Source: Tubulanus polymorphus
Taxonomy: Eukaryota; Animalia; Nemertea
Reading direction: 5' to 3'
Assembly (NCBI RefSeq): GCF_964204645.1
Contig: NC_134036.1
Span: 11,015,859 to 11,079,858, forward strand
Length of the DNA stretch: 64,000 nt
Shown here: one piece after another, positions 5,606 through 43,785 of the stretch
How the letters are laid out: every line of letters starts with the position of its first letter
Position numbering within the stretch: position 1 is the first letter of the stretch
Program-made: the position numbers and the translations under genes
Notes under the pieces: model-generated
Told to the model about the DNA's origin: nothing
The model's input: only the letters and a program-made list of their open reading frames with translations
The model's database searches: none

Positions 5606-7685
5606 CAATTCAACTGAAATTATACCAATGATTGCCCAGCTTGATATTGATCGAAATTTGCGTCGATGTAGAATCGATATGCACACGGCCCTTTAAAATC
5701 GATCTGCGCGCATCACAGAGTTTTAAGTGTATATAACGTTTCGATCTCACGGAAATTTATCATATTTGATTAGCTGTCGTTTTCCAGACTTTCAAATATT
5801 AATTTGTCATATGCTAATCAAATATGATATATTCCTGTGAGATCGAATAAAATATTTTCGCTGATGTACCATGTGTGTGTATAGAACGTATTATTCTGAC
5901 CGGCCTTACATCTGCGATTGTAAGTGACCATGGAATCCGATGGTTGTGTGGATTGTAAATTTCCAGCGCGTGTTTTGTCGACCACTGGGTTTGGTCCCGA
6001 CTGCCGAATTAATGCCGTAGATCACAGTTACTCGCTGTATAAACGACATGCACAGTTGTCACGCCCTGTTTTTACCGTCAATCGGGTCATCGTCAGTGCT
6101 TTTAAATCTGCCAAAAATTTGTGGACTGTCAAATCTTTTATTTTTTTATTTGGCTTACTAATTTGCAAATAATCAAAGCCACCATCCCAACTCTGTGTAA
6201 ATACCGTACTAGGACGTATCTTTACAATAAGTAGAGACGTAGCGTGGTTTCCGCAAACTACAACGGTTTTATAGTTAAAGGACGTGCCGTCATATGATAC
6301 AACGTGTTGACTGTGCTTTCATTGACAAACACGAATGCTTTTGGCCGATTGATTATTTTCATTTAAACGATTATCATGTTTTACTGACCGCCTAAAATTG
6401 GTGTGAATTGAGGTACTTATCTATATAAGATGATTCTCGCATTTTGAAAAGGATATTTAGATATTATTGTCGCCATGCATATTTATAGTTTTTGCAGAAA
6501 CTGTGTTGTTAATCCAAAGAGAGTTTTCTTTTCTTAAACTCGAGAATCTTCAATTTCAAAGTCAATTCGACACCGATCTCCTTGAGCAATGAACCAACAT
6601 AAAACTGAAACATATCCAAGCGACGGATGAGGTCAATTAGGTGAAGTTTAACCTATAGTTAGATAGTTATACGTTATAATGAGAATTATTATTTCTAAAT
6701 TCGTAGTCGTGAAATCAATGGAAATACTAATGGGACTGTGGTTTCTATAAATAAATGAAGGCGAAGAAAACTGAAAACTGCTCCTGAACCAGGTTCCACT
6801 TAATATATGAGCAATTACTCATTGGTTCAAAGAATATCCAAGTGGAAAAAAATTCATTTACCCTATATGATGGAGTATTCTTATATATCGGTCTACATAT
6901 CATAGTCTATTAATTAAGGGGTTTTGCAGATAAGGTTCGTACAATTACTTAACGCTCTATTCAGGTCTTTTTCGACCATGAACCAAATCATTTGACTCTG
7001 GCTCCAGTTCCAGTGTTATGTGTGTTTTATTTTACTCTGAATCCAGTATACAATTTTGGTAATTTTTGTCTCTTAGTGTAATGGTAAAGATGAAAACTGG
7101 ATTCGGAATCCATTAATTTGATATGGCTGAATACGTTTATTAGTTAACTATATAATTTTGGGTCCGGAATCTTTAGTAAAATATAAAACAGACGCAATTG
7201 GTTCATATTTTACCCGTTTACACTCGGGATTCAAGTGCTGAAATTAACGCCCGACAAGTTGAGAGAATTGAATAGAAAAGTAAATAGTGTATGAATATCT
7301 GAAGTGTAAATACATCAGCGAATTTTCTATATAAACGTTTTTATATCGAATGCAGCAACCGAACGTTTAACACGAAGGCAAAACCGTTAGTAGATAACAT
7401 ACGTATAGTGATAGCAAATGTGCGCGATATTTTTCATTAACGTGTCACATTTAGTAGAACATGTACATTCTAAGTGTTTCGAGGTTTTAACCGATATAGA
7501 TTAGAAGTTATGTTGCATACATTTCATACCAAATTGTTCTTATATTTGAGATGAGGAACTAATTTCATTGAATGATTCAGGTGTTTTAAAAAAGACGCGA
7601 AGGGGCTTCTGAACTAATTTCAAACGACTAATCAAACGAATCACGCGTTCTTAACATATAAATGAATCAATTATGATAAATTATA

Positions 7686-10216
7686 ATGACAGAAGAAGAT
7701 AAAGAAGCATTTGAGTTTGCAGATAAATGTTATTATTGTGAAAAGATATTTAATTTTAGAGATAAAAAAGTAAGAGACCATGATCATTTGAATGGAAAGT
7801 TTAGAGGTGCTGCACATGAGAATTGTAACTTACAAGCTAAGAAAATTAACTTTGTACCAGTTATATTTCATAATCTATCAGGATATGATGCACATTTATT
7901 CATCAAACAGTTATGTCATAAAATAGAAGAAATCAATAATAAAATAGACAGATTAAATTCAAATAGATCAAAAGATAAAATACCAACTTATAAATTTAAA
8001 ATGTTAGCTAGAACATCTGAGAATTATATATCATTCCAATTTGGTTGCCTAAGATTTATAGATTCATATAGATTTTTAAATAGTTCATTAGATAACTTAT
8101 CAAAATCATTAGTTGATGATGAATTAAAAATATTAAAACAACACTACCCAAATAATGATGATTTTAAATTAATGAGATATAAAGGCGCAATTCCATATTC
8201 TTTCTATAAAAATCATAATGATTTTAACATAACTGAATTATTGAAAGAACAATTCTATGATGAATTAAAAAATGAATATGTTAAAGATGAAGTCTATAAT
8301 AGAACATTGAATATTTGGAATCATTTCAAAATAGAAAATCATGGACAATTAGTAGATTTATATTTAAAATCAAATGGATCATTATTATCGGATATATTCG
8401 AAAGATTTAGAGATGTAAACCTAAAATATTTTAATATTCATCCATTGTTATTCCAGCCCAGGTTTAACATGGGATTGTGGTTTAAAATTTACAGATATAA
8501 AAATGGATTTGTTAACAAATATAGATCAATTATTATTATTTGAAAAATCTATAAGAGGAGGTGTTTCAGGTGTATTAGGGGATATAGATATTTCAATGTA
8601 AATGATAACCCTGGATATAAGTTATTATATATAGATGCAAATAATCTATATGGTTGGGCAATGATGGAACCACAACCTTATGGAGTATTTGAAATAAGTG
8701 AAGTTTCACAACATGAAAATAATGATAAATTTGATTGGAAGAAAATAATTCTAGATATTGCAGATGATTCAGATACTGGTTACTTCTTTATTGTAGATTT
8801 AGAATATCCTGAACATATTAAATTTAAATCTAGAAATCTAGCATACTGTCCAGAACATAAAACTGTTACTCATGAAGAATTATCAAATTTAAAAAAAGAA
8901 TTAAACCCGAAAATCATATTCATACAGAAAAGTTAATGGTAACTCAAGAAGATAAATATAATTATGTAGTACATTATAGAATGTTAATGTTTTATCTAAA
9001 ACAAGGAATGATCCTAAAAAAGTACATAGTTATATTTCATTCAGTCAATCTAAGTGGTTAGAAAAATATATAGATTTTAACACCAAACAAGGACATGAAG
9101 CTAAAACTGATTTCGAGAAAGATTTCTTCAAGTTAATGAATAATGCATTCTATGGTAAGACTTGTGAAAATATTAGAAATAGAAATGATATTGAGTTAGT
9201 TAGTAATGGTAAAAGGATAAGGCATTTACAATCATATCCTAAGTTTTTAGGTAACAGAATATTTGATGAAAATTTAGCCGCAGTTAAAATGAGAAGAACT
9301 TCTATGAAATTTAATAAACCAATCTATGTTGGCGGTTTAGTTTTAGAATTATCAAAATTACTAATGTATGAATTTTATTATAACATATTACAACCTCATT
9401 TTGGAGAAAAACATATAGACATCCTATATCTAGATACTGATGCGTACATATTAAAGATAAAAACTAATAACATAACTGATGATTTAAAAACATTAAAACA
9501 TCATTTTGATTTCAGTAACTATCCTAAAGATCATGAATTGTTTAGCAATGATTATAAAAAAGTTCCCGGTAAATTCAAAGATGAATTAGGTGGTGAAGAA
9601 ATGATAGAGTTCATAGGTATTAGATCTAAAATGTATTCGTAAAGAAAGATATCAAACAGATTTTAATTCTAAAATGAAACAATGTCTAGGTAATAGATTA
9701 TCACAATTATTCAGTAAAGAAGCGCATTCAGTTACACTATCTAATTTATTGGGTTGTTCAGATGAATTTCTCAAATCATGGATTGTATATCAATTCAACG
9801 ATAAAATGAATGAAAAAAACTATGGTGAATACTTTCATATTGATCATGTGTTACCGATATCTAAATTTAACATGAATGATGAACACAATCAGAAATTAAT
9901 TTGGAATTGGAAGAATCTAAGACCTCTTGAAAAGAAAGAAAATCAAATCAAATCTAATAAACTAGATTTTCAGTTATATTTGGATCAATTAGATAAAGCA
10001 AAGAAATTCATTGAATTTTGGAACAATGAACCAAATAATGAACAATATGTTGAAGAAATTGAAAAGATTAGTCTAAACCCATTTGATGATAAAAGATATA
10101 TTCTGGATGATGGAATTCATACAGTTGCTTGTGGATGTAATTTAGATGAATACTTAAAATTTAAAACAGAAAAAACAAAAGAGAACGAGATAATGAAAAG
10201 AATTCTATCGTGTTAA
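7686..10216 (+). pseudogene. polB: Protein-primed family B DNA polymerase of element A (fragmented)
   Basis: Endonuclease VII-like VRDHDHLNGKFRGAAHENCN, exo VIFHNLSGYDAH and FIDSYRF, IRGGVS, YIDANNLYGWAM, KLMNNAFYGK, YLDTD, GKFKDE, RSKMYS, C-terminal LNPFDDKRY..DGIHT. Confidence 0.95.
9641..10054 (+). other. HNH endonuclease segment embedded in polB
   Basis: KERYQTDFNSKMKQCLGNRL..LLGCS..FHIDHVLP..NLRPL..NQIKSNK; close paralog of 21149-21595. Confidence 0.85.
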
Positions 10217-10245
10217 TCAAATTTTAATAAAAATATGTATTATAA

Positions 10246-10595
10246 ATGGAGAGTAAACAAACACACAGTGAGAGCAACAAATTATTTCTAGATAGAATAA
10301 AAGATACTACAAATGTAAAATCTGTAGATTATAAATTCAAAAAGTTAACAGAATTAATAATCCATAAGAAATATCTAATTACAAATATTGATACAGTTAC
10401 TAACAAATATGGAGATAAATTAGTTATACACTTAGAATATGAAGGATTAAAAGGAAATACATATACATTCAGAACATATTTACCAGATTTTATAGATTAT
10501 CAAGTGAAGATTTAGAAGAATTATGTTCTGGTGATTTCTATTTCGTATACAAAGGTAAGAATGAAAAGGGGCACCATGAAATAGATTTCGAATAA
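10246..10595 (+). pseudogene. Small conserved Polinton protein, possibly OB-fold ssDNA-binding protein (one frameshift)
   Basis: FKKLTEL..Y.I....TNKYGDKLV..L....YLP pattern; continues in another frame to HEIDFE*; second copy at 33998-34235. Confidence 0.5.
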
Positions 10596-10609
10596 AATAT
10601 GTAAAATAA

Positions 10610-11368
10610 ATGGTAGAATTGAAATAATACAGAATATTTGTTGATTCTAGAAGACTTACAAATTATAAATCACATAATTTACTAGTACAATTAGATAGAG
10701 AATTCAAGAATTGTGTAGATTTAAAATTAGTAAATATAAGTTTATGTAATTCTTTTTACAATGTATCGGATAAAACTATTGAACATAGAGTCTTTTTAAT
10801 TCATGATAGAAATAAATGTAAATGGTTTCATCTTTATCTTAAACCAGGATTATATAATTTAGATACATTAGCGCAGGAAATTAATAGAAGAGCTCGGTTG
10901 AAAATGGGTGCATCTGCTGGATTTGGATTAAGACTGATTAAAAGTGATAGCTCCGATAAAATAAGAATAAAATTAGGTAATGAAGATCAACATCAATTTC
11001 TAGTTAAAAAACCTTTAGCTAAAATTTTAGGAATAACCCCAGATGTACGGATACGCAATGCTGATTCTACACCAAACTTAATACCTTTTACACACTTTTA
11101 TATTTATTGCAATTTAATTGATCCTACAAAAACATTCGAAGCAACTAAAGATATAACTTGTAATTCTGGTTTACTAAACATTTTACCATTGAAGAATGTT
11201 AAAGAATTTGGAACGCAAATAAATTATAATTTAACAGAATGTGATTTCAAACCATGCATTCCTCGTTTTAATAATTTTAGATTAGAAATTAGAAATCATA
11301 ATGGATATTTAATTGATTTGAATAACTTTCCTGTAATTTATGAATTAGTTATAAGATGTAGAGAGTAA
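10610..11368 (+). pseudogene. Minor capsid protein (penton), one early in-frame stop
   Basis: IFVDSR N-terminus, SFYNV, KPGLYN, LAKILG, YIYCNLID, EIRNHNGYLIDLNN; ATG 10610 is in frame with ORF 10898-11368. Confidence 0.8.
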
Positions 11369-11386
11369 TTTTTTTTCACTATATAA

Positions 11387-11728
11387 ATGAATATAACTGT
11401 TGGACCGAGTATATGTTTTAGGTTTGATTTTAAACATGGTAAAGAAATGAGAATTAAACTAAATGATGTAATTACTGATATAAAAAGTAAATCATTTAAC
11501 AATGCATCAATGATTAATAAAGAAAATTATAATATAGGAAAAGTATTTGATTTAATTAAATCACCTTTAGAATATTATGAATTAAATGAAGATCGAATTA
11601 TTGATAATATTAAAAACATATTAACCAAAATATATGATAATCATAAAAGTAGTAATGAAATAAATGTTGAAATAATCATAAATAAGATAACTAAATATTT
11701 TGATGATAGTAATTTCTTTGATAAATAA
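11387..11728 (+). CDS. Hypothetical protein of element A
   Basis: Intact ORF with TAAATG start, tightly packed between neighbours. Confidence 0.65.
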   Translation: MNITVGPSICFRFDFKHGKEMRIKLNDVITDIKSKSFNNASMINKENYNIGKVFDLIKSPLEYYELNEDRIIDNIKNILTKIYDNHKSSNEINVEIIINKITKYFDDSNFFDK

Positions 11729-11950
11729 ATGAGTGATAATAAGTGGATAATAACTGGATTATATCATGGAGCATTACTATCAGTTGGAACTGTTGGTTAT
11801 TCAATGGTTTTAAAAAAAGTATTTATAATGGGAAGTATTAATGTTGATAGATTTGATATAAATGATATCTTAAAATTAACATTAGCAGTTACTTTATCTA
11901 AGTTAACTATTGATTATTTGGAAAAACAAAAATATATTCCTCCCATATAA
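11729..11950 (+). CDS. Small hydrophobic protein of element A
   Basis: Intact ORF, TAAATG overlapping the upstream stop, two hydrophobic segments. Confidence 0.7.
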   Translation: MSDNKWIITGLYHGALLSVGTVGYSMVLKKVFIMGSINVDRFDINDILKLTLAVTLSKLTIDYLEKQKYIPPI

Positions 11951-11974
11951 ATGCGTAATTATTTTACTAAATAA

Positions 11975-12397
11975 ATGGCTTCTGCAGTTATAACTATTAT
12001 AGGAACGGCAATTGTTAACGCTTTAGCATTTACTGGAGGTGGATATTTATTTAAGCATATTGATAAAAATGGATCATTATCAGAACAAAAAAGACATAAC
12101 TTAGCATTAGAAAAATATAATAAAGCAGCAGAAGAATATAGAGAAAAGAGGCAAAACTATATGGATTATATTAACAAGGAATTATATGATCAGAAGATTT
12201 CACATAGAGATTTTCAATCAGTTGATGATGCAATGAGTTTATATAACGCGGTAACCAATAAAGAAAAATTACATCTACATAAACCTACAATATCAGATTA
12301 TTATACCCAAAGTAAAGAACAACAGAAATATGAAATAATATGGATTTTAGGTGGAACTGTTATTGTTATATTTGTAGCGTATAGATTTACTAATTAG
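11975..12397 (+). CDS. Membrane protein with N- and C-terminal hydrophobic helices
   Basis: MAS..IIG.A.VNALAFTG..YLF and E.KRH.LALEK motifs recognised from alpha-adintovirus-like elements. Confidence 0.75.
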   Translation: MASAVITIIGTAIVNALAFTGGGYLFKHIDKNGSLSEQKRHNLALEKYNKAAEEYREKRQNYMDYINKELYDQKISHRDFQSVDDAMSLYNAVTNKEKLHLHKPTISDYYTQSKEQQKYEIIWILGGTVIVIFVAYRFTN

Positions 12398-12418
12398 TAA
12401 TTTTTTTTTGCAAAATAA

Positions 12419-12845
12419 ATGGATGATAATATTGATATTATTCCTCATGATATAAAGAAAAATAAATTAAAAATATATTTAGAAAAAAAAAATATTAGAA
12501 TTTGAAAGTGACTTAAAGATAAAAAACAAAAAATATTTAAAAAGTAAAATTATATATTATTTGATTATAAGTGGTTCGGTTACAATTAGTTCTGTAATAA
12601 CATTTCTAGCAATATTCAGTCCATTAACACCTTTAGCTATATCAATTGGTGTATTAGGATTAAGTTCAAGTGTTTTAACCGGAATAAGTTCAAAATTAAA
12701 TATAAAAAGTAATAAAGAAAAAATCAAAACTAATGTAAAAGAAATTGATAAATTAAAGAATACACTAGATTATATAATAAGTTCAAATGGCCATATAACA
12801 GTTGAAGAACAAGATAAATTATTAAAAGAATTAGTTAATTATTAA
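12419..12845 (+). pseudogene. Two-TM protein, frameshifted in A-runs
   Basis: TAAATG start at 12419; hydrophobic ORF 12561-12845. Confidence 0.6.
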
Positions 12846-12861
12846 TTTTTTAATTATATAA

Positions 12862-14145
12862 ATGGGGTTTCCAAAAGCTTTCCAATATAATAAATCAATT
12901 AAATATAATATTCCTGCAATAGATTTAAAACAAAATATTACATATAAAATTGTAGTTTTGAATTCATTAACTAATTTAGAAATTTACGTTACTCAATCAC
13001 AGTTTTTATTTCTAAATTGGAAAATATGTTTAATACATATGAAGTTACTTTTACTCGAGATGAGTATCATATGTATAAAGTAAAATCTAATATGAAATAT
13101 TGGCAGAACCAATTAAATTTTGCTGTTTATTGCGCAACAACTGGTTGCGGTATAAGTTGGAATGATCATTTAAATAACTTAGATAAAAATTTGAATTATT
13201 CTGATTTAAAATTAATTCACACGATATTTAGATTTCACACATATTTTCAAATCAGAATAATATTAAATGAATTAGAATGTCCTTTACCCGGATCTAAATA
13301 TTTTAAAGAATTGGACAATAATATTAATCTATCTAAGTTTTATAAAATATGTAATGAATTTAATATAAACATTAATTCCGATTTTAGAGCGCATGGTAAA
13401 TTGCCATTGTGTTGGTGAAGAGTATGAAATAAAAAGAATTGATTATATGCATAGAATTGGAGCTTATCATAATTATAAAATTGATAATAATAATGGTTGG
13501 GTTAATTTCATTTTAGAAAATGGTGAAGGTTTTACAAAATCAGGTATACAAAGAATAAATCAATCAATTAGAACTTATTTGATATGTATTTTAGGTGCGC
13601 AAGTTGAAACAAGATCACCAATAGTTGGAAATGATAACACTTCATTCGATGCGCAGAAACAATTCAATGTATTATTTGAAGATTCCATTCATAATGATAA
13701 AAGTATATCGATTCCAGAAAACATTGTAAGATATCAAAATTATTTAGATAAATCACATATTAGATTAAATTATTGTATAAGCCCTAATCTATTAATTATT
13801 TCTAATGATTAAGTATTAAAGATGGGAAATATAATTGGTTATAATAATCTAATTAAAACTGCAACAATAAATAATTCATTTGGATTAAATGATATAAATA
13901 AAACGATTATTACTGCTCCAAAATTAATGGAAGGTGAAAAAAATAAAAAACACATTCAATCAACTGAAACTAAAACTAATGATTCTAAAATAAAAGATTA
14001 CAATACATCAGAAAATATTAGAACTGATAATATTCAACATGATATAATTAAAACTGATAGTGATAATAAATCCCATGAAAATGCTAAATTAGCTATAACT
14101 TGTATAGGAATTGTAATCGGAGGAATATTATATTTTAAATTTTAA
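12862..14145 (+). pseudogene. Conserved element-A protein with C-terminal TM (four ORF fragments)
   Basis: WQNQLNFAVYCATTGCGIS, FRFHTYFQIR, GFTKSGIQRINQSIRTY, DAQKQF motifs across overlapping ORFs. Confidence 0.7.
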
Positions 14146-14160
14146 TTTTTTATTATATAA

Positions 14161-15592
14161 ATGGATGAAGAAATTCCATTGGATCCTTTAGATGAACCTG
14201 GTATAAGTGATGAACCACAACCTGATTTTAATGAAACTAATATTGATAATGATGATGAATCAGCATATACTTCTAATTCTAATTTAGCAGATAGTGGTTC
14301 TAAAGCCCCATCAACACAAGAAAATGATAGAAGAACTAGATCGAGAATAGATCCTGAAAATGAAAATCCAGATTTATGAAAGAAAAATTTAGAATATAAT
14401 GAATTTATGTATAAATTCATACCTGTATTTAAAGATTCTGTATATAATATAAATGCTAGAGGCGCCAGACTTTTAGTACAAGATTTAAAATATTTAGATG
14501 GTGAATATTATTATCATTTGAAAGATGATTATTATATTGATATCTCTTATAAAAAACAAGAAAAAATATTAAAAGAATCAACTTTGGGAAAAGAACCAGA
14601 TAGAATTAAAAGAATAAGTAATAGTAATGTAATAACTGATCTTACCGACACAGAAATAAATCAAAATAGAAGAGTATCTAAACAAAGAATTAATGACTTA
14701 TTTGAAACAATCGATGATAATTCAGAAAAAGAAACAACTTCTGAACAGAATAAAACTTCCAAAACTAGTAATCTTAAATCAAACACTGAAGTTCAAACTG
14801 AAAAACTTTTACCGAATGGATTACTTGATGCAACAGATCAAGAAATAGAAGCTTTAAGTATGTTTTCTAAAAAAACAATTAGAGAAATAATAAGTATACG
14901 AAATGAAGCCGATAAAATTGCGCGCGAAAAAAATATTAGATATAATAAAATTAAACCTTTAGAAAATAAATTATTCGACACCAGAAAAGAATTAGAACAA
15001 TTAAAATTAGATAGAGAATTTAAAGTTATTGAAGAAATTGAATTTAAAAAAAGAAATGCATATTTAGAAAAAGAAATTGATGATTTAGAATATAACATAG
15101 ATTTCAGAAAGAAAAAATGAAATTATTATTAAAATCATATGATTATTGTATTAATAGATTAAAAGTTGTTGTTAAAGAGTTAATAATAAAACCAAATTCT
15201 GACATATCACTAAAAGATAGAATAAAATTATTATTTAAGTTTGAAGGAATACCAATTCTTTCAATTCTAACAGCTGTAACTATGTTATTTACAACAATTG
15301 GTTTAGCAATATCAAATTCTACTCCTACTCCCAATAAACCGGATAAACCCCCAGATAGTAATTCTATACAAGATAAAGTTAAGGATGGTTTAAAAAAATA
15401 GCAAAATATTTATGGGAACTATCTAAAAAATCTGCTGCAGCATTACCAGGAATTATTGCATCAATTGTTGGTTTTATATTCAAATCTGCCGGGAATATTC
15501 TTAACTTTGCTGCTGAACATATTATTTTATTTTTAATTACAGTTGTAAGTGCAATTATTTTTGGGTTAGTTAACATGATAAAAAATAAATAA
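14161..15592 (+). pseudogene. Acidic N-terminus / coiled-coil / multi-TM protein (fragmented)
   Basis: ORFs 14161, 14407, 15117 plus continuation KSAAALPGIIASIVGFIF to stop at 15592. Confidence 0.7.
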
Positions 15593-15611
15593 TTATGTTT
15601 TTGTTAAATAA

Positions 15612-16858
15612 ATGAGTGGGAGTTATATCAATCCTTCTAAGAATCATAGAATATCTAATGCTATTAAAGCAGAAAGATCACATCATATAATTACTCATAA
15701 CCTTTCTAATATTAATCCTGATGAAACTTTATATGTTAGAATTCCTCGATTAACACAAAATACTTTTTATGTTCCAAATAGTATTTATTTATCAGCCGAT
15801 ATAAAAGTAATCGGTAATAACAATAATTATGTTGTTGATAATGTTGGGAGATATTTGATTAAAAAATTAACTATAAAGATTTGCCCAGAAACAGCTTTCT
15901 CATTAGATGATTATAATCTATTTATGCATTATAAAAATTTATGGTTAACTAAAGAAAATAGAAATAATATGATATTTCAAGGCATCCAATCAGAAAACCA
16001 AAATAAATTAAGATCAGGAGCTAATGACGCAATAGTGACTCGTACCGCAGATAATTTGATAAAAAAGATTTATGGAAGCAAATATAAAATTCCATTAGAC
16101 TTTGAATTGATAAATAATAATGCGCCTTTATATAAATATGCAATTCAAGAAGATGTTATATTAGAAATAACATTTGCTCCTGTAAATGAAATTGTTTTAT
16201 CTAGCGTTATTAAAGATTTGGGTTATAAATTATCGAATATATGTTTAGAATATGATACAGTAACTGATGAACATATTTCAAGTATAATTCAAACTAAATA
16301 CAATCAAGGATTTTCATTATTATATGATTATATTGATAAATTTAAAACTGTAACTATTAATGCAAATGATGAAATAATTTATGAGAATATTAACTTCCCA
16401 AGAAGATCTATTAAAGGTATATTAATATTTTTTACCATTGCAACATATTCTAATGGTGCAATACAGGTTGATAAGTATTAAAATCCTGAAATAACAAAAG
16501 TAGAAATAACTATCGAAGGAATAGCAAATAAAATATTTTGTCAAGGAATGAGAATGATAGATCAATGGCCAGAAATTAGAAAACATTTTATGAATGAAAA
16601 AGTGAAATCATCTGAAAATTGTAATATTAATCGAATTGATTATTATACCGGTAATAAATATGCATTATGGTTAGATTTTAGAACAACAGAGGATAATTCA
16701 TTACATGGTTCTGGAAAAAAATTACAAAACACTAAAGATGGAATACAATTATTCATGACAAAGAAAAAAGGAAGCCTAAATTTCAAAATGCATATTTATA
16801 TTATATCTGACGCGCAATTAAATATTGTAAATTCTCAATTAAATAGTGTTATGTATAA
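15612..16858 (+). pseudogene. Major capsid protein (double jelly-roll) of element A
   Basis: ETLYVRIPRL, VDNVGR, YG.KY.IPLDF, LSNICLEYD, RRSIKGIL, ALWLDFR, HGSG, ISDAQLNI; single in-frame TAA at 16479-16481. Confidence 0.88.
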
Positions 16859-16891
16859 GAATTTTAACTTTAATAAAAATTTATATAATAA

Positions 16892-23662: not shown

Positions 23663-23669
23663 CAATATC

Positions 23670-32280: not shown

Positions 32281-32574
32281 CTACTAGAAAACCTAATAGC
32301 GACTGTCAAAAAGCTTTGACCAATTACGAGGCTTCATTTTTGTTTGGGGGGGGGGGAGTGTCAGAGGTTAGAAAACCATAGTTTGATGTTGATACTATTA
32401 GTTAATTGACAAGTTGATATGATATACGAGAGTTAATTGGCTGTGCGGGTTTCATATGTGACCGAGTTACTAATAGTTAATTGGATGTACGGGTTTCATT
32501 GTTGGGTCAAGTTAATTCGATATTAATTGTGAATCGGCTATGTGGGTCTCATTTGTGGTCGAGTAAGCACGTTA

Positions 32575-33101
32575 ATGATGATTGAGGTTGTAAACGTTGT
32601 ATCCACTGCGCATTTGAATTGCCGTTTAAATTTAACCGATATTGCAAGAAAATTATGTAATGTCGTTTATGACCCCCGAAAGTTTAGCGGATTGATGTGG
32701 AAACATAGACGTATAAAAGGTAGCTGTCTATTGTTCGTTAATGGAAAAATGGTAGTGACAGGATGTAAAAGCGAGTTTAACAGCCGATGCAGTACACGGA
32801 AATTTGCTCGTTTGATACAAAGGATGGGTTACGTAGGGAACTTGAATAACTTGAAAATACAAACTATGACTGGAGTCGCAAAAATCGGTCGACGCGTAGA
32901 CTTAGTGCAACTTTCCAAAACAGTTGACGGTTGATTATAATCCTGAAATATTTCCCGGTTTTGTGTACAAATGTGAAAACGGAATAAAATGTATAGTACA
33001 TAACGGCGATACTTTAATATTGTCGGGTGCCAAAAAACTCAACGATTTTACAGGAAGCCTACGAAGAAGTTCTATTCTATACCATTCTTTGTTCCAAATA
33101 A
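32575..33101 (+). pseudogene. TBP: Intronless TATA-binding-protein homologue carried by element B
   Basis: NVVST, L.L..IA, YDPRKFSGL, LLFVNGKMVVTG.KS, RKFARLIQRMG, then YNPEIFPG.VY and LSGAK: the two TBP core repeats; two frameshifts. Confidence 0.88.
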
Positions 33102-33276
33102 AAAAGTCATTAAAAGCATATTGTTTTTTAAGTGTAAATAAAATTATGAGAAAAGATGAATTGGCGAAAGTTATTTTGTTGGTGTTGTTTGAAGCAGGAG
33201 GAGCCGAATTTCGAGTGTCAATTCAATAGAGTTAATTGAGTATTGAGCACGTGTTGCGGTAGTACAACTGTAATTG

Positions 33277-33997
33277 ATGAAAGCCGAACAGAAAAGATTC
33301 CTGGCGAATCAATATTATGGCGTCGACAAAGAAGGAAGTTTTTCAAACGCAAATACATTACTACGGATTTGTAAAAAAGAAAACAAAAATATCTCTTAAC
33401 GTGAGATACGAGACTGGTTAGCCGAACAAGAAGTTCATACGTTACACGCCAAAGTACGAAAGAGATTTCCCAGAAACAAAACTATGGCCTATCGAGTAAA
33501 CGAACAATTTCAGGTTGACTTGTGCGACGTTTCGAATATTTCGAAACACAACGACGGTTACAAATTTCTATTGACGGCTATTGATGTATTGTCTAGATAC
33601 GCGTTCGCTATACCGTTAGAGAATAAATTTAATTCTACCGTTGTGGATAGTTTTAAAAAGATTTTCAAGATTTGGAAACCTAGCGTTATTCAATCGGATT
33701 CAGGCACAGAATTTGTCGGTTCAAAAACGCAGGCGTATCTGAAAAACGAGGGCGTACGTTTTTTCCAAAGTAAAAACGAAGTAAAATGCGCTTTAATCGA
33801 AAGATGGATACGTACTTTAAAATCGAAAATGTATAAGATATTTTCGCATAGAAATTCATACAGATATATTGATTTGCTTAAAGATATAGTAGCGTCATAC
33901 AATAAATCGTTTCATCGTAGTATAAAAATGGCTCCAAACGATGTCAACGAGTTAAACGCGTACAAAGTTTTCAAGAATCTATACGGTACAATCCGTA
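33277..33997 (+). pseudogene. rve integrase of element B, 3' truncated
   Basis: YY....GSF, WL..Q..HTLH, FQVDLCD, IDVLSRYAF, QSDSGTEF, IERWIRTLK, YNKSFHRSIKMAP. Confidence 0.92.
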
Positions 33998-34445
33998 GTA
34001 AATATGTTCTGAATTTATATGTATTTCCTTTTAATCCTTCATATTCTGAGTGGATAACTAATTTATCTCCATAGTTATTAGTAACTGTATCAATATTTGT
34101 AATTAAATATTTCTTATGAATTGTTAATTCCGTTAACTTTTTGAATTTATAATCTGCAGATTTTACATTTGTGATATCTTTAATTCTATCTAAAAATGAT
34201 TTGTTGTTCTCACTGTGTACTTGTTCACTCTCCATTTTTATAACATATTTTTTATTAAAATTGATTTTAGAAGTTATTAGATTAATTTTGTAAGAGTAAT
34301 AGGGAATATGTTGGTCTAGATTAAAGGTTGAGAGGTTGAGTGAGTAGAAAATGAAAAATAAATTGTGCGAGAATTAATTTTTCATTTTTTACTCACTCGA
34401 CCTTTCGACCTTTGATCTAGAACAACATATTCCCTATTACTGTTA
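33998..34445 (-). mobile_element. Element-A family fragment: terminal hairpin joined to the SSB-like gene
   Basis: 34235-33998 encodes a close paralog of 10246-10490; hairpin at 34295-34441. Confidence 0.88.
34295..34441. repeat. 147-bp imperfect palindrome (70-bp arms, 7-nt loop)
   Basis: AGTAATAGGGAATATGTT...AACATATTCCCTATTACT with 7 mismatches. Confidence 0.95.
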
Positions 34446-35140
34446 TGATTTAATTAAAGTAGTTAATTTCACTTTGTTCTGTTCTAGGCAAAGAAACACA
34501 GTGTGAACAGAATGTCTAAGGCGGCAAACTAAATACGCATGTCGCACTACCGGAAAGGGTTGAATTACATTTTGAAAAGATCAACCGCCGCAGTAGCAGC
34601 ATTAACTAAAATAATCCCAAAACTTATTAGAAATGAATTGGAAGTATGATGTCATCATATAGTGAAAGCATAGGCTCGCTAATAAAAAATATCAATATCA
34701 TCAATTCAATTAACATCTGCAGTTGCTCAATTAACACATTTATTAATCTATTTATGTCCATGGAATTTTTTTCACTTTTCAGAAATTGTTACCAGTAATA
34801 TTACCAGGGATGATAGAAGAAAGGAAATTGAAAATGCACACCTGCCATCACTAAATGATCAGTGAGTATTATATCAGTTTACATTCATTTAAGTATATCT
34901 CCCTATCATTAAAAAATCTAATACCTACAAATTTACGTATGAAAAAAGGGGTTCGCACGAAGCCACTTAACGACTTCTATTTAGTTTAATCTTAATTGAA
35001 CATGACTAAACCACTTTAGTGCCAGGTTCCATTACGCATCTATGTGAAGTTACTTTGAACTTTGATATCGAGAAGTCTATCAAATTAATTCTTACAGTGA
35101 AATCAATGATAGCGCAGATGTTGATGCCGATGAAGCTGTT

Positions 35141-35482
35141 GTGTTCGGTGGCAATGAAGATAAAGCTGATGATGATCAAGATGACCGTGATAAAGATAAT
35201 AATGACAGTGAACAGTTGCAGGAACCAGTTAACCTGAAAAAGGGAGTGAAAGGAAAAAGCACGCGACAGAAGTGGTCATTGAAAGAACTCAATGAAATAA
35301 AGAAATATTTCATTAAATATCTCGAGAGTGGTATCCCTCCAAACACATTTGCATGTGAAAAAGCTAAAAAGCTTAGTAAAGCCAATAATGGAGAGTTGCC
35401 TTTAAGGCAAAGTCACCTTATCATAAAGAAAATTAGCAACATGAATGTAACAAAACGGCAATCTTTGAAAAATAAAAAGTAA
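35141..35482 (+). pseudogene. C-terminal SANT/HTH-like exon, probably of a Crypton-like tyrosine-recombinase transposon
   Basis: R.KWS..E...I..YF...L..G.PP....C pattern after an acidic linker. Confidence 0.4.
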
Positions 35483-36244
35483 TTTTATCCACATTCGCAA
35501 CTAAATAATACTGAAGCGATATTCTAAAGACGAGAAGTACTTTGTCCCCTTCACAAGTATAGAAATATTCTATTTGTAACATTTCTGATGTTGAAATAAA
35601 AATGGTGAATTTTAATTCATTGTTGTTTTAGCAATTGTCAGATGTTGCTTACTCTCTACATAAGGGGCATTTCAAAAAATTCACAAATGTAGCTATAATT
35701 GGTGTCTGTACAGTTTCCCACTCAGTGCCCACCAGTCTATGTATTAAGCCAATCAGATGTGTTGTTTTTACCAGCAGGTTCGCTCTATGAATAACCATGC
35801 ATCTGATTGGCTAGATATATAGATTGGCAGGCGCCGAGCAGGAACCTGTCACCCCAAAAAAATCTTGGGCGATATAATAGACCAATGAAGGCTTTGCAGC
35901 TGGGTTTGGTTGACATGGGCCTTGGCTAGCGGCAATCAAACCCTGGCAAGCGAGGATGTAGGCCATGTGGCCTGCAATCAAGTCATTTTCATCGAATACT
36001 AGAGGCCATATAATAGCTTAAACTGTCCACCGTTCACCCATTAGTACTGATTGACTAATGGTCAATATTGACCCTGTCCCATTATTAGACCGGACTAGTG
36101 ATATTCTTCCGTACAGACAGCAGAATGGTTGTTGCAAAAAGGCAGCCCGATGTTATTTTATGAAATTAGGATATCAAGTCACATGAGGTGCTTTTTGTTA
36201 GAAAAGTTTTTAAAGACACATAAGAATGTCTAGCCATATAAGCC

Positions 36245-37507
36245 TTTTAGCCACATAGGTCAGCAATCACATAAGGTGCATTTCGTTAGTCCGTCCGTCC
36301 GTCCGTCCGTAGACGGAATCCAGTTATTTTGGGAAGTTTTGAAGACGCTTCAAGGTAATGTCTTGATACTTGGGTTAGACATGTATCTACCCTAGACACA
36401 TCTTCAGCCCAAAAACTGGCCCTGTCAGATTCAAGATGGCCGACTGGCAGCCATTGTTGTTCGCCAAAATCAGCACTTTTTACACATCTTGAACTTTTTG
36501 AGGGAAATTTTGAAGACGCTTTGATCAATTACCTTGATCTTTCGGATATATGTGAATTCCCCCAGGGCCCATCATAACAGCATAACAAAAATTGGGTCGA
36601 TCGGATTCAAGAAGGTCGTCCTATGACCTTTTTAGTGCCCAAAAACGTTAATTTTGGCCCAAATTCTGAGTCCTGTAGCTTCCTACTGGTTTATCATTTC
36701 TCATTGCAATTTGTGATAGGTATTCTTTGGAAAGGGATGTTTTATACCTGAGACAGGTATTCTTCATCAGCCAATTATGACGCAATTGGCGGCCATCTTG
36801 GTGTCAGCAGTACTCATTCGTAAGTGGGAAAAAGTTTTTCCACATTATATTGATACCTAAGCGTATTTTGTTACCACAATCATTTAGAAAGTTGCAGCTC
36901 ATAACGTGTTCTATGATTGTGGTGAGTTTCGAGGTCATTGGTTTTTGTATATGGCCACCAGGGGGCGTTGAATAATGCAATATCTTAGTATTTCTATATT
37001 ATATTCGTATCAATGCATATTTTGTAACTATAATCAATTGCAAAGTTGTAACTCATGACATCATCTATGATCGTGGCAAGTTTTAAGGCCATTAGTTATT
37101 CTATATGGTCACCAGGGGGCGTTGAATAGTAGAATAACTAAATATTTCCTTATTAAATTGGTACCTAGGCATATTTTGTTACCATGATCAATTACAAAGT
37201 TATAGTTCGTGACATGTTCTATGATTGTGGTGAGTTTCAAGGTCATTGGGTTTTGAATATGGTCACCAGGGGGCGTTGAATAGTAGAATAACTTAGTATT
37301 TCCATATTTAAGTGGTAACGAGGCATATTTTGTTATCACAATCAATTACAAAATCGTAGCTGCTGACATGTTCTATGATTGTGGTGAGTTTCAAGGTCAT
37401 TGGATTCTGTATATGGTCACCAGGGGGCGTTGAATATTGAAATTGTTAGATTGTTGAGCATTTGGAACCACTTCCCAAGTGGGCATGGTATCCCTGGACC
37501 CCTAGTT
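36245..37507 (+). mobile_element. Helentron-associated (HINE/DINE-like) non-autonomous element with internal 154-bp tandem repeats
   Basis: (GTCC)n near the 5' end (36289-36310), four 154-bp repeats (36842-37437), 3' end ..CTAGTT. Confidence 0.6.
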
Positions 37508-38295
37508 AATTTTAATGCCAGTGCTCGCTAAATGCCATTTCAGAGAACCAAATTGCTCAATCTAACTCAAATTTGATGAAAGTTCCATTCTTTATAATGC
37601 CAATTTTGTTATTATGCCATGTTTTCCATTTGCCGCAACAGTGTACTAATACTGTATAGGCTTACACAAACTGAATGGCTATCTTTCTCCTTTTATCCTA
37701 GACGATATAAGTAACATATGCCATGTCTGTGGAAATGAAAATGGCAAGTCTTCTGATTGGGTAAGTATAACTTGAATAGATTTAGGTGAGATAAATTAAA
37801 AAGACCAAAAGAATATACAATGTACTAAGGGAATTATGGCTAGTAATTGCAGGGAGGGTCAAAGTCATGTTTTGTGCTTTGATTGTTAAGACAGAAGCAC
37901 CCATATATAAATGAACATTAATCAGAATATACAGTTCTGTTATTTCTTTTCTAGGAGGAATGCAACTATTGCTATCGATGGTACCATGTGGTGTGTCTAC
38001 CTCATACTTTAAACCGAAAGATAATTCTAAATTTTGATTGGAAATATATTTTCTGCAAGCAGTACTGTAGTAAGTAAAGAAATAAACACTTAAATTCATG
38101 ATAAGAAATAAACACATTAAATTCATTCTATATTCTGAATTCCATTTTATTTTTTGTCTCAATATTTACAACCTGTCAAAGAAGGAAACGGATCGGAAAT
38201 CTTTTCAGATTTTAACTTTAAAATTTCGATTTTATCATCGCAGAATAACGTATACCTATTGACACTGTAATTGACTTTTGACTAGCCATGTGCTT

Positions 38296-38599: not shown

Positions 38600-40577
38600 A
38601 TGATGAATACGACTACTTGACAAAGTATTTTAGAAATATGTAGTACGACGAAGTCATCTACTCAATCTAGAAAAAGAAAACGCCCGACGCACAAACTCGC
38701 CTTCAGTAAGTTTCTACGCAGTCGCGGGCCCGTTGAAAGTTCAACGGAATACCTGGAACTATGACCCCGAGCCTCATTATCTAGGATCGCTTGTATATGC
38801 CAGTGCTAAAACGTGGCAGGGGGTAAAACGTATAGATTTACGAACTTTCGAATGCTGCGAACGACGAAAACAACTATACCCTACTAAAAACGGTATTGCT
38901 TTGGATCTCCAAGAGTGGGTACATATAGATTATTGTAAAGCCGATATCGAACACGAAATTGCGCGCGTTAAAGAAGATATCGATTACGTGGGTGTGGTGA
39001 CCGTTGGTCGTTCGAACTTTATCAAAATATATAGATCTAGTCACGATCACCGTATTTACGTAGATATCCGAAAATACGATCAACACGATGAGCTTTTCGA
39101 CGTAAATCCGACTAGATGCGGCGTTAAACTAACATTGGAAAAATGAAAAAAATTAAAAGACATTAATTTTACAGAAGATATATCCGAACTGGCTAATATG
39201 AGACCGTGCTGGTATGATTCGAGGCTGTTCGAATATCACGGATACCGGATACCGGACACCTAAATACCGGATACCGGATACCCGAGATTGCGGAGTATAT
39301 AGCGCATCGGGTCTAATGGTCAGCGGTAAACGGCAGTTCGTGTGAGATCTAGTAGAAGAATAAAAGGCCTATATTATTTTCATAATACATCGGTATATGC
39401 TTTTCAAGTACAGTAGCATACAAATGTTACCGGTATAGACAATTCAAACAGATTTATTGCTTCCGAGTAATAACACGATTACATACGACAGTCACGGTAA
39501 CAAACAGTAGACAGAAAATATTTTTTATCATTCTGCCAATTTGAACGGATTACCGAATAGACCGTTTTGGGCAGAGCTACTGTACAATACAAAATATCTT
39601 TATCATTCAGTTTCACGAAGAAGGCCATTTTAATAAAGTTAAGCGTTATTGACGATCTATATTTTCATGATCTTTAGAATTAAATTTAACATCAGGGTAA
39701 ATAGTCACTTAGAGGTATGGTAGGTACCGGTATTTGACGAACTGATTTTTGAAGGTTATACCAAAACAATTGGTGTCCAGGGGTGTTGATTTTCGACGAT
39801 CGCCATGGACTCAATTTCATTTTTAGGGACATCGTGATTGAGAATGAAATGTAGACATATCGTCCAATAAATAGAATATACCGAATATTCTCCTCCATAA
39901 AATAAGAAAACGAATTTTAATTCTTTGTTTGTAAATACTTGTATTTCATTGGTGTTCAGCTCAACTATTCCATCGTAAATCAACAAATACAAAATGTAGA
40001 GATCTTTAAAACAAACTTTATTAGACGAAACTTTAGACTCGCTTATGGCCTTCAAACTTGAGATATAGGGCCTAGCAGTACTCAGCCCTATTAATGAAAG
40101 GATTTTACAGAAAAACCAAAAAGGGCCACCAATACATATCCATCACCAGTGAAGTAAGATAATAAAAAATGAATATAACGTTTAACTTCACCTAACCAAA
40201 GAAAAACAGTATTCAGAAAAAAATATGTATAATATTGAGATCGATGATGACACTTAAAACGTGAGAGAAGGCTGTAATCAGGCTAGCATTAAGACAAATA
40301 AGCTGGTTAGCCGCTGTAACAATTTGACATAAATGAATTGTATGTCGCGGCAGTACTACTTACAACAACACGGAAACGAATCCTTAGACCCGATGCGCTA
40401 TATATTCCGCAATCTCGAGTATCCGGTATTTAGGTGTCCGGTATCCGGTATCCGTGATATTCGAACAGCCATGATTCGAGTCACTCGAATCAGGAATACA
40501 GGTGTCCGCACTGCGCAAAAGACACAAGCGGGGTTAGAAAAGCACTCGAATACGGAATAATGATAACCCAAGTATAA
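38600..40577 (+). pseudogene. Tandem PC4 (SUB1-like) domain protein with C-terminal Zn motif, split by a MITE
   Basis: IDLR.F...PTKNGIAL...EW and VDIRKY...PTRCGVKL; removing 39223-40479 restores PCWYDSSHSNQEYRCPHC. Confidence 0.8.
39223..40470. mobile_element. Non-autonomous Mutator-like (MULE) element
   Basis: ~90-bp TIRs starting GGCTGTTCGAATATCACGG; perfect 9-bp TSD ATGATTCGA at 39214-39222 and 40471-40479. Confidence 0.9.
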
Positions 40578-40680
40578 TTTCCCAGATAATTATTAGATAA
40601 TATTCATATAAAAGCTTATTAAAATGCATAATAAACTTGCAATGGATATAATATTTCATATCTGTCTCATTTTATTCGGA

Positions 40681-41582
40681 TTTACTCTATAATAATCTAG
40701 CATTTTGGTCGTTGCACAGACCCTGGATACAATCATCAAAGAATGTAATTAAGTAATTGAGCAACAAAAACCATTGACCCATCGTTAACATCTGCCATCT
40801 GAAATATCTGGTCAGCAAACATCTGCAGCGAAAAGTAGCTATTGCGTATAAAATACTCGTCAGAAGATCTCGAAATCCATAACCAAAATGTCGAGCAAAG
40901 CAGGAGCAAGATTTTTTTATTGCAACTACGCTGGAACGCCGGTGTGCTGTGTGTGCCTCGAAAGACGGCGAGCGTTGGTGGCCTGTGAAAACCATCCCTT
41001 GGCTAACTATATTTGTATGGGATGTTTTATTCAAATGGTAGAACTACGTCCAGAGGACCAACGGTATATTACGTGCCCAATGTGTCGCCTGGTATGGTAT
41101 TTCGAGTTGATGAAAGCGCGCCGTTCGACGTTGAGTGGTATGCGTGAAAGGCCACGTTAGGAAGACGCCGACTAAGAAGAGTTATGAAAACGATATACTG
41201 CAAAAAAAACACACGGTTCTTTTAAGAACCACCCCAAAATTCTCAGAAAGAGACAGTTTTGCTAAGCTCCTCGCTTTATGCCTCAGTTTTTCTTTTTTCT
41301 CAGAAGATTAAAATGTGTAAAAAAATACATCAACCATTGTGAGGACAGAACGGGCAATATATCACCCGCTCTAACCAAAAGGGGGTTAACTAAAGTAGTG
41401 AAATTCTATATTTTACGAATTTTATACGTTATTATTCAGGTTTACTCTACAATAATCAAGCATTCTGTCGTTGACCAGCCCCTTCATACATTATATTATC
41501 AAAGAACGTAATTAAGTTATTGAGAAACAAAAACAATTGATCCGTCGTTAGCATCTGCCGTCTAAAATATCTGGTCAGTAAA
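40681..41582 (+). repeat. Diverged ~145-bp direct repeats at 40681-40820 and 41441-41582
   Basis: TTTACTCTA.AATAATC.AGCATT...ATCAAAGAA.GTAATTAAGT.ATTGAG...AAATATCTGGTCAG.AAA in both. Confidence 0.85.
40888..41160 (+). CDS. Small RING-finger protein (putative E3 ligase)
   Basis: CCVC..C.NH..CMGC..CPMCR. Confidence 0.7.
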   Translation: MSSKAGARFFYCNYAGTPVCCVCLERRRALVACENHPLANYICMGCFIQMVELRPEDQRYITCPMCRLVWYFELMKARRSTLSGMRERPR

Positions 41583-41716
41583 TTATCAGTGTTTACTATA
41601 AAACCAGCTGGATAGCGCGTTATATTCGGTAGTCTGTCACATGGGTACACACCAAAGAAAAACGCTTTCAGACATTCGTCTTTTTTTAATAAATTCTAAA
41701 ATTTGGTTTGTGTATA
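41583..41716 (-). pseudogene. N-terminal fragment of adenain-like cysteine protease
   Basis: T.QI..FFGVYPCDRLP..P..FIVNTD, truncated before the catalytic GxHW; directly follows the MCP. Confidence 0.75.
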
Positions 41717-41737
41717 ATATGGTCGCTAATAATCGAT

Positions 41738-43028
41738 CTATATATGACGTTCTTTAGTTACTTGTAGTAATTCGTCGAAAACGGCGTAAACAATCGAATT
41801 CACGTTATGCGGTGAAGCTTCATCATATCGCATTTCGATTTTTAACGACCCCTTTTTAATTAGTGACAGGTGCGGTTGATCCCCGTACTCGGGCAACATG
41901 TTGAACCCACAAATGAAATTGCCTTTTTTGAAATCCTCACGTTTTATCCCAATTCCTTCGATTTTATACAATAAACCCCGGGCTATATATAAACCGTGAT
42001 ACACTTCACTACCATCACCGCGAGAGTCTATAATTAACGGCGAGTTTAGTGCATGGATATTATCAACGGTCACCCCCTATATAATTCAACGAATAATCCT
42101 TGAAATCCAACGGATTCTTTTTGTAATTACCGCTCAACGCGTCGTCGTCCACTAAAGCTAAAACAATAGCCTTAGGTATCTCTCCGACGAAAACGGAATC
42201 CTTGATAATTGTTCTCAGACCTCCTTGAATTTTTAACGATAATAATTCAGTTCTCGAAAAATAATATTTTGCTGTACTCTTTTCCAGTGCTTTAACGTGC
42301 GCTACTAAAACAGAACTATCCAGTTCTAGTTTACGAATGTATAGTTAAGCGCTTTCAATCTTTATACGAAAATCTGGGTTTTCGGCAGGGGAAATTAGAG
42401 CAAAACATTCCTTTGATCGAGTTAGTTTTATTTGTAAATCTGTATTGTTGATGAAAATCTTATTCATTCTCATTACGTCGCTGTACAAACGAGTATAAGC
42501 GCAAACCAGTTTACTGCCTTTAGTGTAGTTATTCCTTCTGACCAAACCGGAATTTGCGTTTGGTAAAGTAGGATCGATATTTGACTTTTTTCCGGCTTCG
42601 TCTTCGGCATAAAGATCGCATTGTAGCCAGCTGCTATTTTTAGTATACGAGTTGTAATTAACCATATTTTCCAGCTCACATTTGAACGGGTATAACCCCC
42701 CGTCGTGGGTAACCACTCGGTCGTTAAGCGTAATTTGCATATCGCTAAATAGACTATTGGCGCCATTGATCATTGAGACTGGCTTTTCAGGACCCACATT
42801 AGTTCAATCGGCGTTAACTATTTTGAGCTGTAGTTCTAAATACGTGACGTTTAAATCTAAATATTGTTCAGTTCTGAATACAATCGGTCCCATATCGTTA
42901 ATCGACGTAGTGGGTTCATAGCTGACGTATCGGCATTCTTTGAAATCTATCTGTGTTCCGGGAACTGTAAACAGATCGAGTTCGGACTTGACGGACAATG
43001 GCGAATCCTTGCGTACTAATAATGACAT
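41738..43028 (-). pseudogene. Major capsid protein (PY) of element B
   Basis: KSELDLFTVP.TQ, SLFS....LND, YPFK, H.KALEK..AKY, KNP..F, G.LKIE, VYA.FD. Confidence 0.9.
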
Positions 43029-43029
43029 A

Positions 43030-43400
43030 ATTAGTACGCTTCAGCGGATGCTTTGGTTTGTCGTACGCGTTTTCTGGTTGTTATACGTCAACTTCGTTTA
43101 CGACCTTTTATTGATTTTGGGGTTGAGGTAGATGGTCTCTTTAAACTTCGTCTGATAATGCGACCCATTGTTTCGATGCCACGATCTTTGATGGCTGTCG
43201 CGATATACTTACCGCCTACCACATCGCTGGCTACGTGTAAACCCGTTCTCAGTAAAGAGGAACCGCTTGCTTGGCGATATCTTTAGTAGTGGAATAACTG
43301 GACGAGCCAACCCGCCCAAGACTGATGCAAATCAAGCACCGCCTTGTACGGGGAATGCCGTGTATAGGTCAATACCCGAACCGCTTTGGTTCATGTAATA
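43030..43400 (-). pseudogene. Gly-rich/basic core protein upstream of the MCP
   Basis: SGSG, Q.G...SVLGGLAR..IPLL, G...ASDV..G, basic C-terminus. Confidence 0.55.
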
Positions 43401-43437
43401 TTTACCACAAGCATCCCGATCGATTTCGCAGAGAGCC

Positions 43438-43598
43438 CTCATAGCAATAAATTCTTCTTTTTAAAGTGTAGACCCAGGTTAACTTTGTCCTCTCTGAAAA
43501 CGGGGATTCTTCCAGCACATTTTAGGATTTTAAGACATATCGTGAAAAAGACTGCTATCGATGACGTGGACAGGAGGGTTTGTTTCATTCCGTTCCAA
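43438..43598 (-). pseudogene. C-terminal fragment of element-B penton
   Basis: ..AGRIPVF...KV...LHFKK* in the expected position. Confidence 0.5.
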
Positions 43599-43599
43599 G

Positions 43600-43785
43600 A
43601 AATATGGTATTATCTAGCGTTGTTAAAGACATGGGTTATAAATTATCGAATATATGTTTAGAATATGACACGGTAAGTGATGAAAATATTGCTAACACAA
43701 TTCAAACTAAATACAATCCAGGATTTTCATTATCATATGATTATATTGATAAATTCAATACTGTAACTATTAATGCAAATGATGC
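43600..43785 (+). pseudogene. Internal fragment of element-A family major capsid gene
   Basis: VLSSVVKDMGYKLSNICLEYDTV..TVTINAND, near-identical to 16190-16371. Confidence 0.92.

Follow-up and report, generated by a model that had tools for sequence, protein, structure and literature searches.

Introduction

The closest described relatives of the elements treated here are the group 1 Maverick-Polintons, or adintoviruses (PMC8097293; PMC8502044; bioRxiv 10.64898/2026.06.19.733378). As far as the accessible portions of these reports go, the genes form two modules, one with PolB, ATPase, pm and pz and the other with integrase, minor capsid, PW, capsid and protease; in vertebrate Mavericks integrase, minor capsid, PW, major capsid and protease lie on one strand (PMC8097293). 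We analyzed a 64,000-nucleotide stretch of the ribbon worm Tubulanus polymorphus genome (contig NC_134036.1, positions 11,015,859 to 11,079,858; hereafter the window), which holds decayed copies of two Polinton lineages: lineage B, which has both modules in common with group 1, and the AT-rich lineage A, which carries poxvirus-type start signals.

Other comparisons are with elements tied to larger viruses. Polinton-like viruses (PLVs) in entomopoxvirus occlusion bodies are animal-associated small double-stranded DNA elements, proposed in the available text of PMC11296320 to be poxvirus parasites. The EMALEs (PMC8547959) and the Halocafeteria virophages and PLVs (bioRxiv 10.64898/2026.07.28.741278) are described, in the portions at hand, as having several GC classes per genome, as here, with helper-virus promoter motifs in some types and insertion near repeats and inside one another. 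Repeats lie near 18 of 29 EMALE sites; in Halocafeteria, other viral elements harbor 5 nested PLVs and 9 nested virophages, with repeat-rich sites favored. Those systems have protist hosts and mimivirus-type helpers, whereas the elements of the window sit in an animal and carry a poxvirus-type motif.

Lineage A carries poxvirus-type start signals

Both lineages encode PolB, an ATPase, an rve integrase and capsid genes, as seen in open reading frames (ORFs) of the window and their Pfam matches, in agreement with a preliminary description that had recognized two Polinton lineages. Their start signals differ. Of the 17 gene starts scored in the long lineage A copy, A1, 14 have TAAATG, whereas the motif occurs at 44 of the 669 ATGs (6.6%) element-wide; the starts of frameshifted genes were picked by eye, and one further start was mis-indexed by one base. 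Among related loci, for which the first ATG of each ORF of at least 100 amino acids was scored, TAAATG occurs in 51 of the 59 ORFs of L001-L015, a set that includes two near-duplicate pairs (background 146 of 2,321 ATGs), and in 4 of the 121 ORFs, many of them spurious, of the more distant L016-L033. The enrichment is not an artefact of AT-rich DNA, since L006, with a GC content of 44%, has TAAATG in three of its four ORFs.

Two classes of upstream sequence accompany the motif. T exceeds A in 9 of 12 A-lineage capsid promoters (two ties, one reversed), and A exceeds T in all five ATPase promoters. In the accessible part of PMC11980589, vaccinia and mpox late promoters are described as having TAAATG at the start codon with an upstream preference for T, and intermediate promoters as having TAAA with a preference for A. 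Lineage A has in common with these viruses both the TAAATG that overlaps the start codon and the T-rich and A-rich upstream classes. Unlike them, the A copies examined encode no RNA polymerase gene, and promoter activity is predicted only. At the sequence level, then, lineage A shares promoters of the type used by cytoplasmic large DNA viruses, and we consider the chances about even that it would use the late and intermediate transcription machinery of a cytoplasmic pox-like helper virus.

Several points count against such dependence. In AT-rich DNA, TAAATG can also form where a stop codon runs directly into a start codon, though the majority of A starts have no adjoining stop. Avoidance of T5NT, considered as support for poxvirus-type termination, was dropped as not specific: T5NT occurs 12 times against 36 expected (L002 and L012 excluded as near-duplicates), but T5NV is also low (47 against 78) and T5 is depleted in distant relatives as well. 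No helper virus was seen in this analysis.

No report of TAAATG promoters or PolB introns in animal Polintons was found among the papers listed in the literature searches. The terms motif/TAAATG or promoter are absent from the main texts of PMC11296320, PMC11131425 and bioRxiv 10.64898/2026.06.19.733378, and upstream and transcription are likewise absent from that of PMC11296320.

An A-rich promoter cassette of about 55 bp stands upstream of several different A genes (10,195-10,250, 16,850-16,895, 21,821-21,876, 23,422-23,480 and 34,231-34,289; L001:2461, L003:565, L004:2287) and could be a site of gene-cassette exchange. L003, a close relative of A, also has a deoxynucleoside kinase gene (10343-10981, E=1.7e-31) with a TAAATG start.

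A1 is one long, dead copy

A1 has a GC content of 0.24, the drop beginning at about 7,660, and a CpG observed/expected ratio (o/e) of 0.57. Its PolB gene is followed by a plus-strand block that closes with a 415-aa capsid-type gene; the ATPase and integrase genes come next, on the minus strand. Over 10.6-21.0 kb, A1 is matched at 70-80% nucleotide identity, with gene order kept, by the metagenome contigs L001, L003 and L004. Because L001 and L004 share the layout, the converging gene blocks are native to A, and A1 is therefore one long copy and not two. The lineage is without intron signals and would be intronless, as judged from uninterrupted orthologous ORFs in the relatives. The copy is dead: stops or frameshifts interrupt PolB, capsid and integrase, and PolB also bears a rearrangement scar.

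The capsid gene, which we label as that of the probable major capsid protein from size, position and family context, has 55 homologues, the best at 77% across 414 aa (P0001). This 415-aa family is conserved; the A capsid gave no Pfam match, and a PDB search with its profile returned 0 matches. A more distant A-type capsid relative (39%) lies on L034, a 4.6-kb contig in an archaeal metagenome-assembled genome and probably a binning contaminant. With the short, decayed protease remnant of B as query, no match was found in A1 or the 33 loci. A 24-bp coding tandem repeat lies in the gene after the capsid gene (17,035-17,311), and 27-bp repeats lie where the two gene blocks converge (18,102-18,258).

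The broken A1 PolB aligns with the PolB of L016 and L017 in blocks of 32-63% (tblastx). A 411-bp HNH-like gene piece (9,643-10,053) stands in for part of its C-terminal region and is an 84% inverted match to 21,168-21,578; we considered this pair as opposed copies or terminal repeats and rejected both, as it is an internal gene piece. TAAATG occurs at 7,659-7,690 in frame with PolB, directly before the endonuclease VII domain and about 525 codons downstream of the PolB start in the distant relative L017. Lineage A may have a short or split polymerase, or A1 may be plainly truncated.

A decayed minus-strand zinc-finger ORF spans 23,426 to 21,830, so the sequence at 23.2-23.66 kb belongs to A1 as its candidate right end, and its reading as a separate A copy was rejected. 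No flanking pair of terminal inverted repeats was found for A1 within the window, only this one candidate right end, which is possibly a host repeat, as a similar arm lies at 86-147.

Lineage B carries Pol II-type motifs and predicted introns

At the ten listed ATG starts of B, TAAATG does not occur. In its left half CCGGAAG occurs five times against 0.5 expected, AAGATGGC four times against 0.3 and TGACGT 13 times against 4.4; the counts in A are 0, 0 and 1. We take these motifs to be ETS-, YY1- and CRE-type, respectively. The 38.4-kb motifs were considered as the right terminal repeat of B and rejected for weak similarity (score 30); they are more likely the PC4 promoter.

Four predicted introns split the zinc-finger leader of PolB, with donors at 29,672, 29,372, 29,118 and 28,705. 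They have GTAAG donors and pyrimidine-rich acceptors, and three of the four are in phase 0 at both sides, the first being out of phase in this decayed copy. Residues 33-152 of the homologue P0070 align with 29,029-28,703 and residue 155 resumes at 28,607, flanking the last intron; as P0070 is itself a gene prediction, splicing of B stays predicted. Intron signals are confined to the PolB leader and not spread across B. Zinc fingers precede the matched domain in 12 of the best 150 PolB homologues.

The frameshifted TBP-like gene (32,575-33,100; Pfam TBP, E=6.5e-24) found one homologue, at 40%. The PC4-like gene belongs to the B family, since there are reads that connect its PC4 side with the protease side while skipping a 1,257-bp transposon; its ORF (38,634-39,146) seems by eye to hold two tandem PC4-like repeats, of which Pfam scores one. 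The prediction for B is nuclear transcription by host Pol II, with splicing.

The integrase of B (rve, E=4.5e-10) is cut off at 33,997. The PW, minor-capsid and protease labels are provisional and were assigned from motifs only. The B capsid matches Tubulanus polymorphus proteins at 82-92%, and capsid and polymerase pieces together at 82-97%. Against A, the integrase aligns at 40% and the ATPase at 27%; capsid and PolB are not alignable. The two halves of B are alike in composition (GC 0.389 and 0.388, CpG o/e 1.53 and 1.45).

B holds the group 1 set of PolB, ATPase, integrase, capsid and, by its presumptive label, protease in two modules. Its AGTAGT start would correspond to the (AGT)2 end of group 1 Maverick-Polintons in the accessible descriptions, and the pairing of a pfam03175-type PolB with this capsid module is similar to the hybrids of Starrett et al., as far as that source was available; a figure legend there lists TBP for non-animal relatives. 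Vertebrate Maverick-Polintons are reported, in the same partial sources, as intronless; B departs from this with the predicted introns of its leader, and also has TBP and PC4.

The preliminary description had assigned the lineages opposite expression strategies. For A this stood in its TAAATG starts and for B in its Pol II motifs, TBP and PC4; the B introns are predicted and lie in the PolB leader only. It is to the lineages, and not to the locus, that the opposite expression signals belong.

Arrangement of the locus

The features are collected in Table 1. Rfam gave 0 matches over the full 64 kb, and no host gene was identified among the long ORFs scanned in the window. Scans of viral contigs found no relative, and those of genome contigs a single short distant contig. 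Read evidence covers the window at 38,460-44,340 and comes from four runs (at most three samples, two studies); X5 depths are those of raw reads and X1, X2 and X3 those of contigs, and all depths come from a sample other than the source of the window.

Table 1 Features of the two Polinton lineages and intervening DNA, in window coordinates
Feature	Position	Strand	Evidence and remarks
A1, decayed AT-rich Polinton copy	7662..23660		Left end missing, candidate right end near 23,660
A1 PolB, protein-primed, endonuclease VII domain, broken	7662..10140	+	PF02945 E=2.7e-5; PF03175 weak, E=0.021
A1 probable major capsid gene	15612..16860	+	Homologues and promoter; one internal stop, TAAATG start, T-rich upstream tract
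A1 A32-like packaging ATPase and rve integrase with chromodomain	18254..19965	-	PF04665 E=8.8e-12; PF00665 E=4.3e-8; PF00385 E=4.7e-5
Two host-repeat insertions within last (zinc-finger) gene of A1	~21,968-22,290, ~22,700-23,120		GC/CpG jump, frame break, tandem copies
A1 right-end region: promoter, repeat arm, loop	23409..23662	-	71-84% to 34,217-34,445 (palindrome of second A copy)
B left end	24167..24330	+	AGTAGT, then repeated CCGGAAG, AAGATGGC and TGACGT motifs
B PolB, pfam03175 type, frameshifted, C2H2 zinc-finger leader	24817..29872	-	PF03175 E=1.9e-27; zf-C2H2 matches
B ATPase, two small core-type ORFs (pm/pz position), TBP-like, integrase	30562..33997	+	Pfam IVa2/A32; order as in the available part of PMC8097293
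Alpha, scrap of second A copy	33998..34445	-	155-bp palindrome, A-type promoter, 5' part of small A gene
Host repeat debris separating B halves	34446..38200		~3.7 kb; 154-bp tandem repeats, palindromes; CpG o/e 0.59
B PC4-like gene	38600..39146	+	PF02229 E=1.5e-9; Pol II-type upstream motifs
Non-autonomous DNA transposon in B	39216..40472		Terminal inverted repeats, 8-bp target duplication
RING-like ORF and second protease-end piece (83% identical)	40580..41365		Missing from B copies behind 26 reads
B capsid module, reversed	41366..43603	-	Likely minor-capsid end, PW, major capsid (41,729-43,028), protease remnant
Beta, internal scrap of A capsid gene	43604..43784	+	181 bp, 90% to A1 16,191-16,371

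B is broken. Its integrase abuts alpha at 33,997, and the capsid module, on the opposite strand, ends at 43,603 against beta. The break falls exactly inside the published module, and the two halves hold complementary genes. At each A-B joint, internal sequence of A meets internal sequence of B; no more than a few bases are shared, and neither an A end nor a target duplication is present. On the other side about 0.5 kb of host repeat lies between the A1 end and the left end of B.

Alpha (448 bp) is 91% identical to A1 10,215-10,483 and has a palindrome, its arms 89% complementary, at the far end that is homologous to the A1 right end, as expected for the end of a second copy; here too the arm at 86-147 allows for a host repeat. 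With the segment un-inverted, order and strand of alpha and beta match A1 (10.2 then 16.2 kb), so that both would come from one neighboring A copy. A 39-bp hairpin (43,785-43,823) begins exactly at the right edge of beta and is probably the end of another mobile element.

Within the B family 139 X5 reads, as well as contigs of X1-X3, skip the transposon at 39,216-40,472, and the joint of 40,579 to 41,366 is seen in X5, X1, X2 and X3, with the lowest X5 depth, 8.5x, between.

The probable explanation, which we favor, is a graveyard cluster of independent A and B insertions, decayed and scrambled by one inversion with deletions. AT-rich A and GC-richer B Polintons would have entered a repeat-rich part of an animal chromosome in separate insertions and then decayed; one inversion (~33,998-43,603) with deletions at both ends would have broken B and a second A copy; and both lineages presumably accumulate where insertions are tolerated. 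The A1 PolB scar and the piece at 40580..41365, absent from other B copies, mark further rearrangement and speak for this account. Clustering at tolerated sites would also be a known pattern, given the nesting in Halocafeteria and the repeat-near sites of EMALEs in the portions of those reports available.

Other observations weigh against it. The AGTAGT end of B at 24,167 has no partner within the window that would serve as a right terminal repeat. The contig scans recovered no intact B relative with flanks, so the ancestral B order is taken from vertebrate elements, and that both B halves come from one copy is what we infer. No listed read or contig spans the B-beta joint, among the records listed. 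The adjacency of A and B is far above uniform chance (see below), and tolerance alone may not fully explain it.

These results recast what the preliminary description had said of the arrangement. It counted at least two A copies and one B; there is one long decayed A copy, the second survives as scraps (0.45 and 0.18 kb), and B is presumably one element broken in two. The two orientations within A are native to its layout, and the B capsid module is reversed. Its nested transposons were borne out by the 139 skipping reads and by the host-repeat insertions in A1.

It is unlikely, though the best placed of the alternatives, that alpha and beta are instead filler, patched into the breakpoints during repair by copying from the abundant A family, with the rest as in the inversion account. 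Both are short pieces located precisely at breakpoints, no family is more abundant than A in the read-covered stretch, and short repeats make up a patchwork on the right flank, which has breaks at 43,515, 43,943 and 43,975. Against filler, the pieces keep the order and strand that a single copy would have, and the sequence at the end of alpha is homologous to the right end of A1, like a natural element end.

We think it very improbable that the locus is an assembly chimera of multi-copy repeats: both families are multi-copy and the B-beta joint lacks a spanning record, but X1 contigs are letter-identical to the window at 41,012-41,195 and 43,979-44,213, and the pieces hold private differences from nearly all reads, like old genomic copies.

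Two other features of the stretch were observed. At 36,832-37,440 a 154-bp unit is repeated in tandem three to four times, and every repeat has a CCACCAGGGGGCG-type motif, which we take to be CTCF-like. Farther on, a nearly intact LINE (50,197-54,752, minus strand) has an ORF1 with CCHC knuckles and an endonuclease/reverse-transcriptase ORF2 across two frames.

Copy number and clustering

X5 depth is about 490-590x over the A capsid, about 490x over beta, 44-67x over the B capsid module and 200-236x over the PC4 region. Because 281 and 416 reads diverge from the window at the two edges of beta, this piece is a scrap of an abundant family. With the lowest X5 bin (8.5x) assumed to be single copy, the depths suggest about 67 A copies and 7-26 B copies.

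Summed contig depth at 43,604-43,784 reaches about 95,000 in X1, against 87-128 for window-identical, unique-looking contigs (~800-fold); X2 has 2,434 against 18-35 and X3 has 855 against 9-15, and X5 reads give about 60-fold. Lineage A may be amplified about tenfold in the X1 sample; contig depth is not copy number, and library bias is possible.

The A density, 0.29 per Mb, is independent of the single-copy depth chosen. If copies were placed uniformly, the probability that an A end lies no more than 0.6 kb from a given B copy would be ~3.5e-4, which amounts to 0.005-0.02 such cases per genome; for a distance of 20 kb the expectation is 0.15-0.64 per genome. With 0.005-0.02 expected, the cluster is unlikely to reflect uniform chance, with the caveats that the depths come from another sample and may include tandem or free copies, that dispersed copies are assumed, and that the window was chosen post hoc. 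Of the insertion hotspot put forward in the preliminary description, adjacency above uniform chance, as estimated from depth, is the part that stood.

The same clustering has been read as a piRNA-cluster-like small-RNA archive that silences both viruses, an alternative that we hold improbable, slightly more so than filler. The mobile DNA is dense, mixed and decayed, with no host gene among the long ORFs scanned, and it clusters above uniform chance. The fragments, however, are without consistent strand bias and B keeps its CpG excess, although a dual-strand cluster is still compatible with both. In addition, differences between reads and window are C>T/G>A at 92/89 places, not fewer than T>C/A>G at 78/78. 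The CpG excess and these counts leave no trace of methylation-driven decay.

Discussion

The lineage contrast is real, and chiefly the two-class poxvirus-type promoters of A are a lead worth pursuing. For the pile-up itself, the best and likely reading is a cluster of dead insertions that became scrambled. That one element targets the other, A integrating into B or the reverse as parasite or defence, as the preliminary description had offered, is the most improbable reading: A sequence does lie at most 0.6 kb from B on one side and at both internal breaks, and a mobile gene for an HNH-like nuclease that could cut (weak PF01844, E=0.0055) is present in A relatives, but no terminus of A and no target duplication is seen at either joint, A1 and B are kept apart by host repeat and, as no A end is joined to B, targeting is unsupported.

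A joint reading of both lineages is offered tentatively, at somewhat below even confidence. In this scenario A would be an animal virophage with tens of copies in the ribbon-worm genome and two temporal classes of poxvirus-type promoters, its helper would be an undiscovered cytoplasmic pox-like virus of marine invertebrates, and it would be amplified about tenfold in one sample; B would be a co-resident autonomous nuclear virus that gained spliceosomal introns, TBP and PC4. The promoters of A predict the way of life of the PLVs in entomopoxvirus occlusion bodies, as these are portrayed in the available text (PMC11296320). There the helper is known; for A the promoter signal is seen and the helper only predicted.

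It is an open question whether the Polintons of animals live autonomously or need a larger virus, and here one genome holds both predicted lifestyles. If the reading is true, A transcripts would be absent unless the helper is present and B transcripts would be spliced, which allows a direct comparison. The co-location matters less: animal Polintons would cluster and recombine like protist ones. Lineage A would also point to a new pox-like virus of marine invertebrates.

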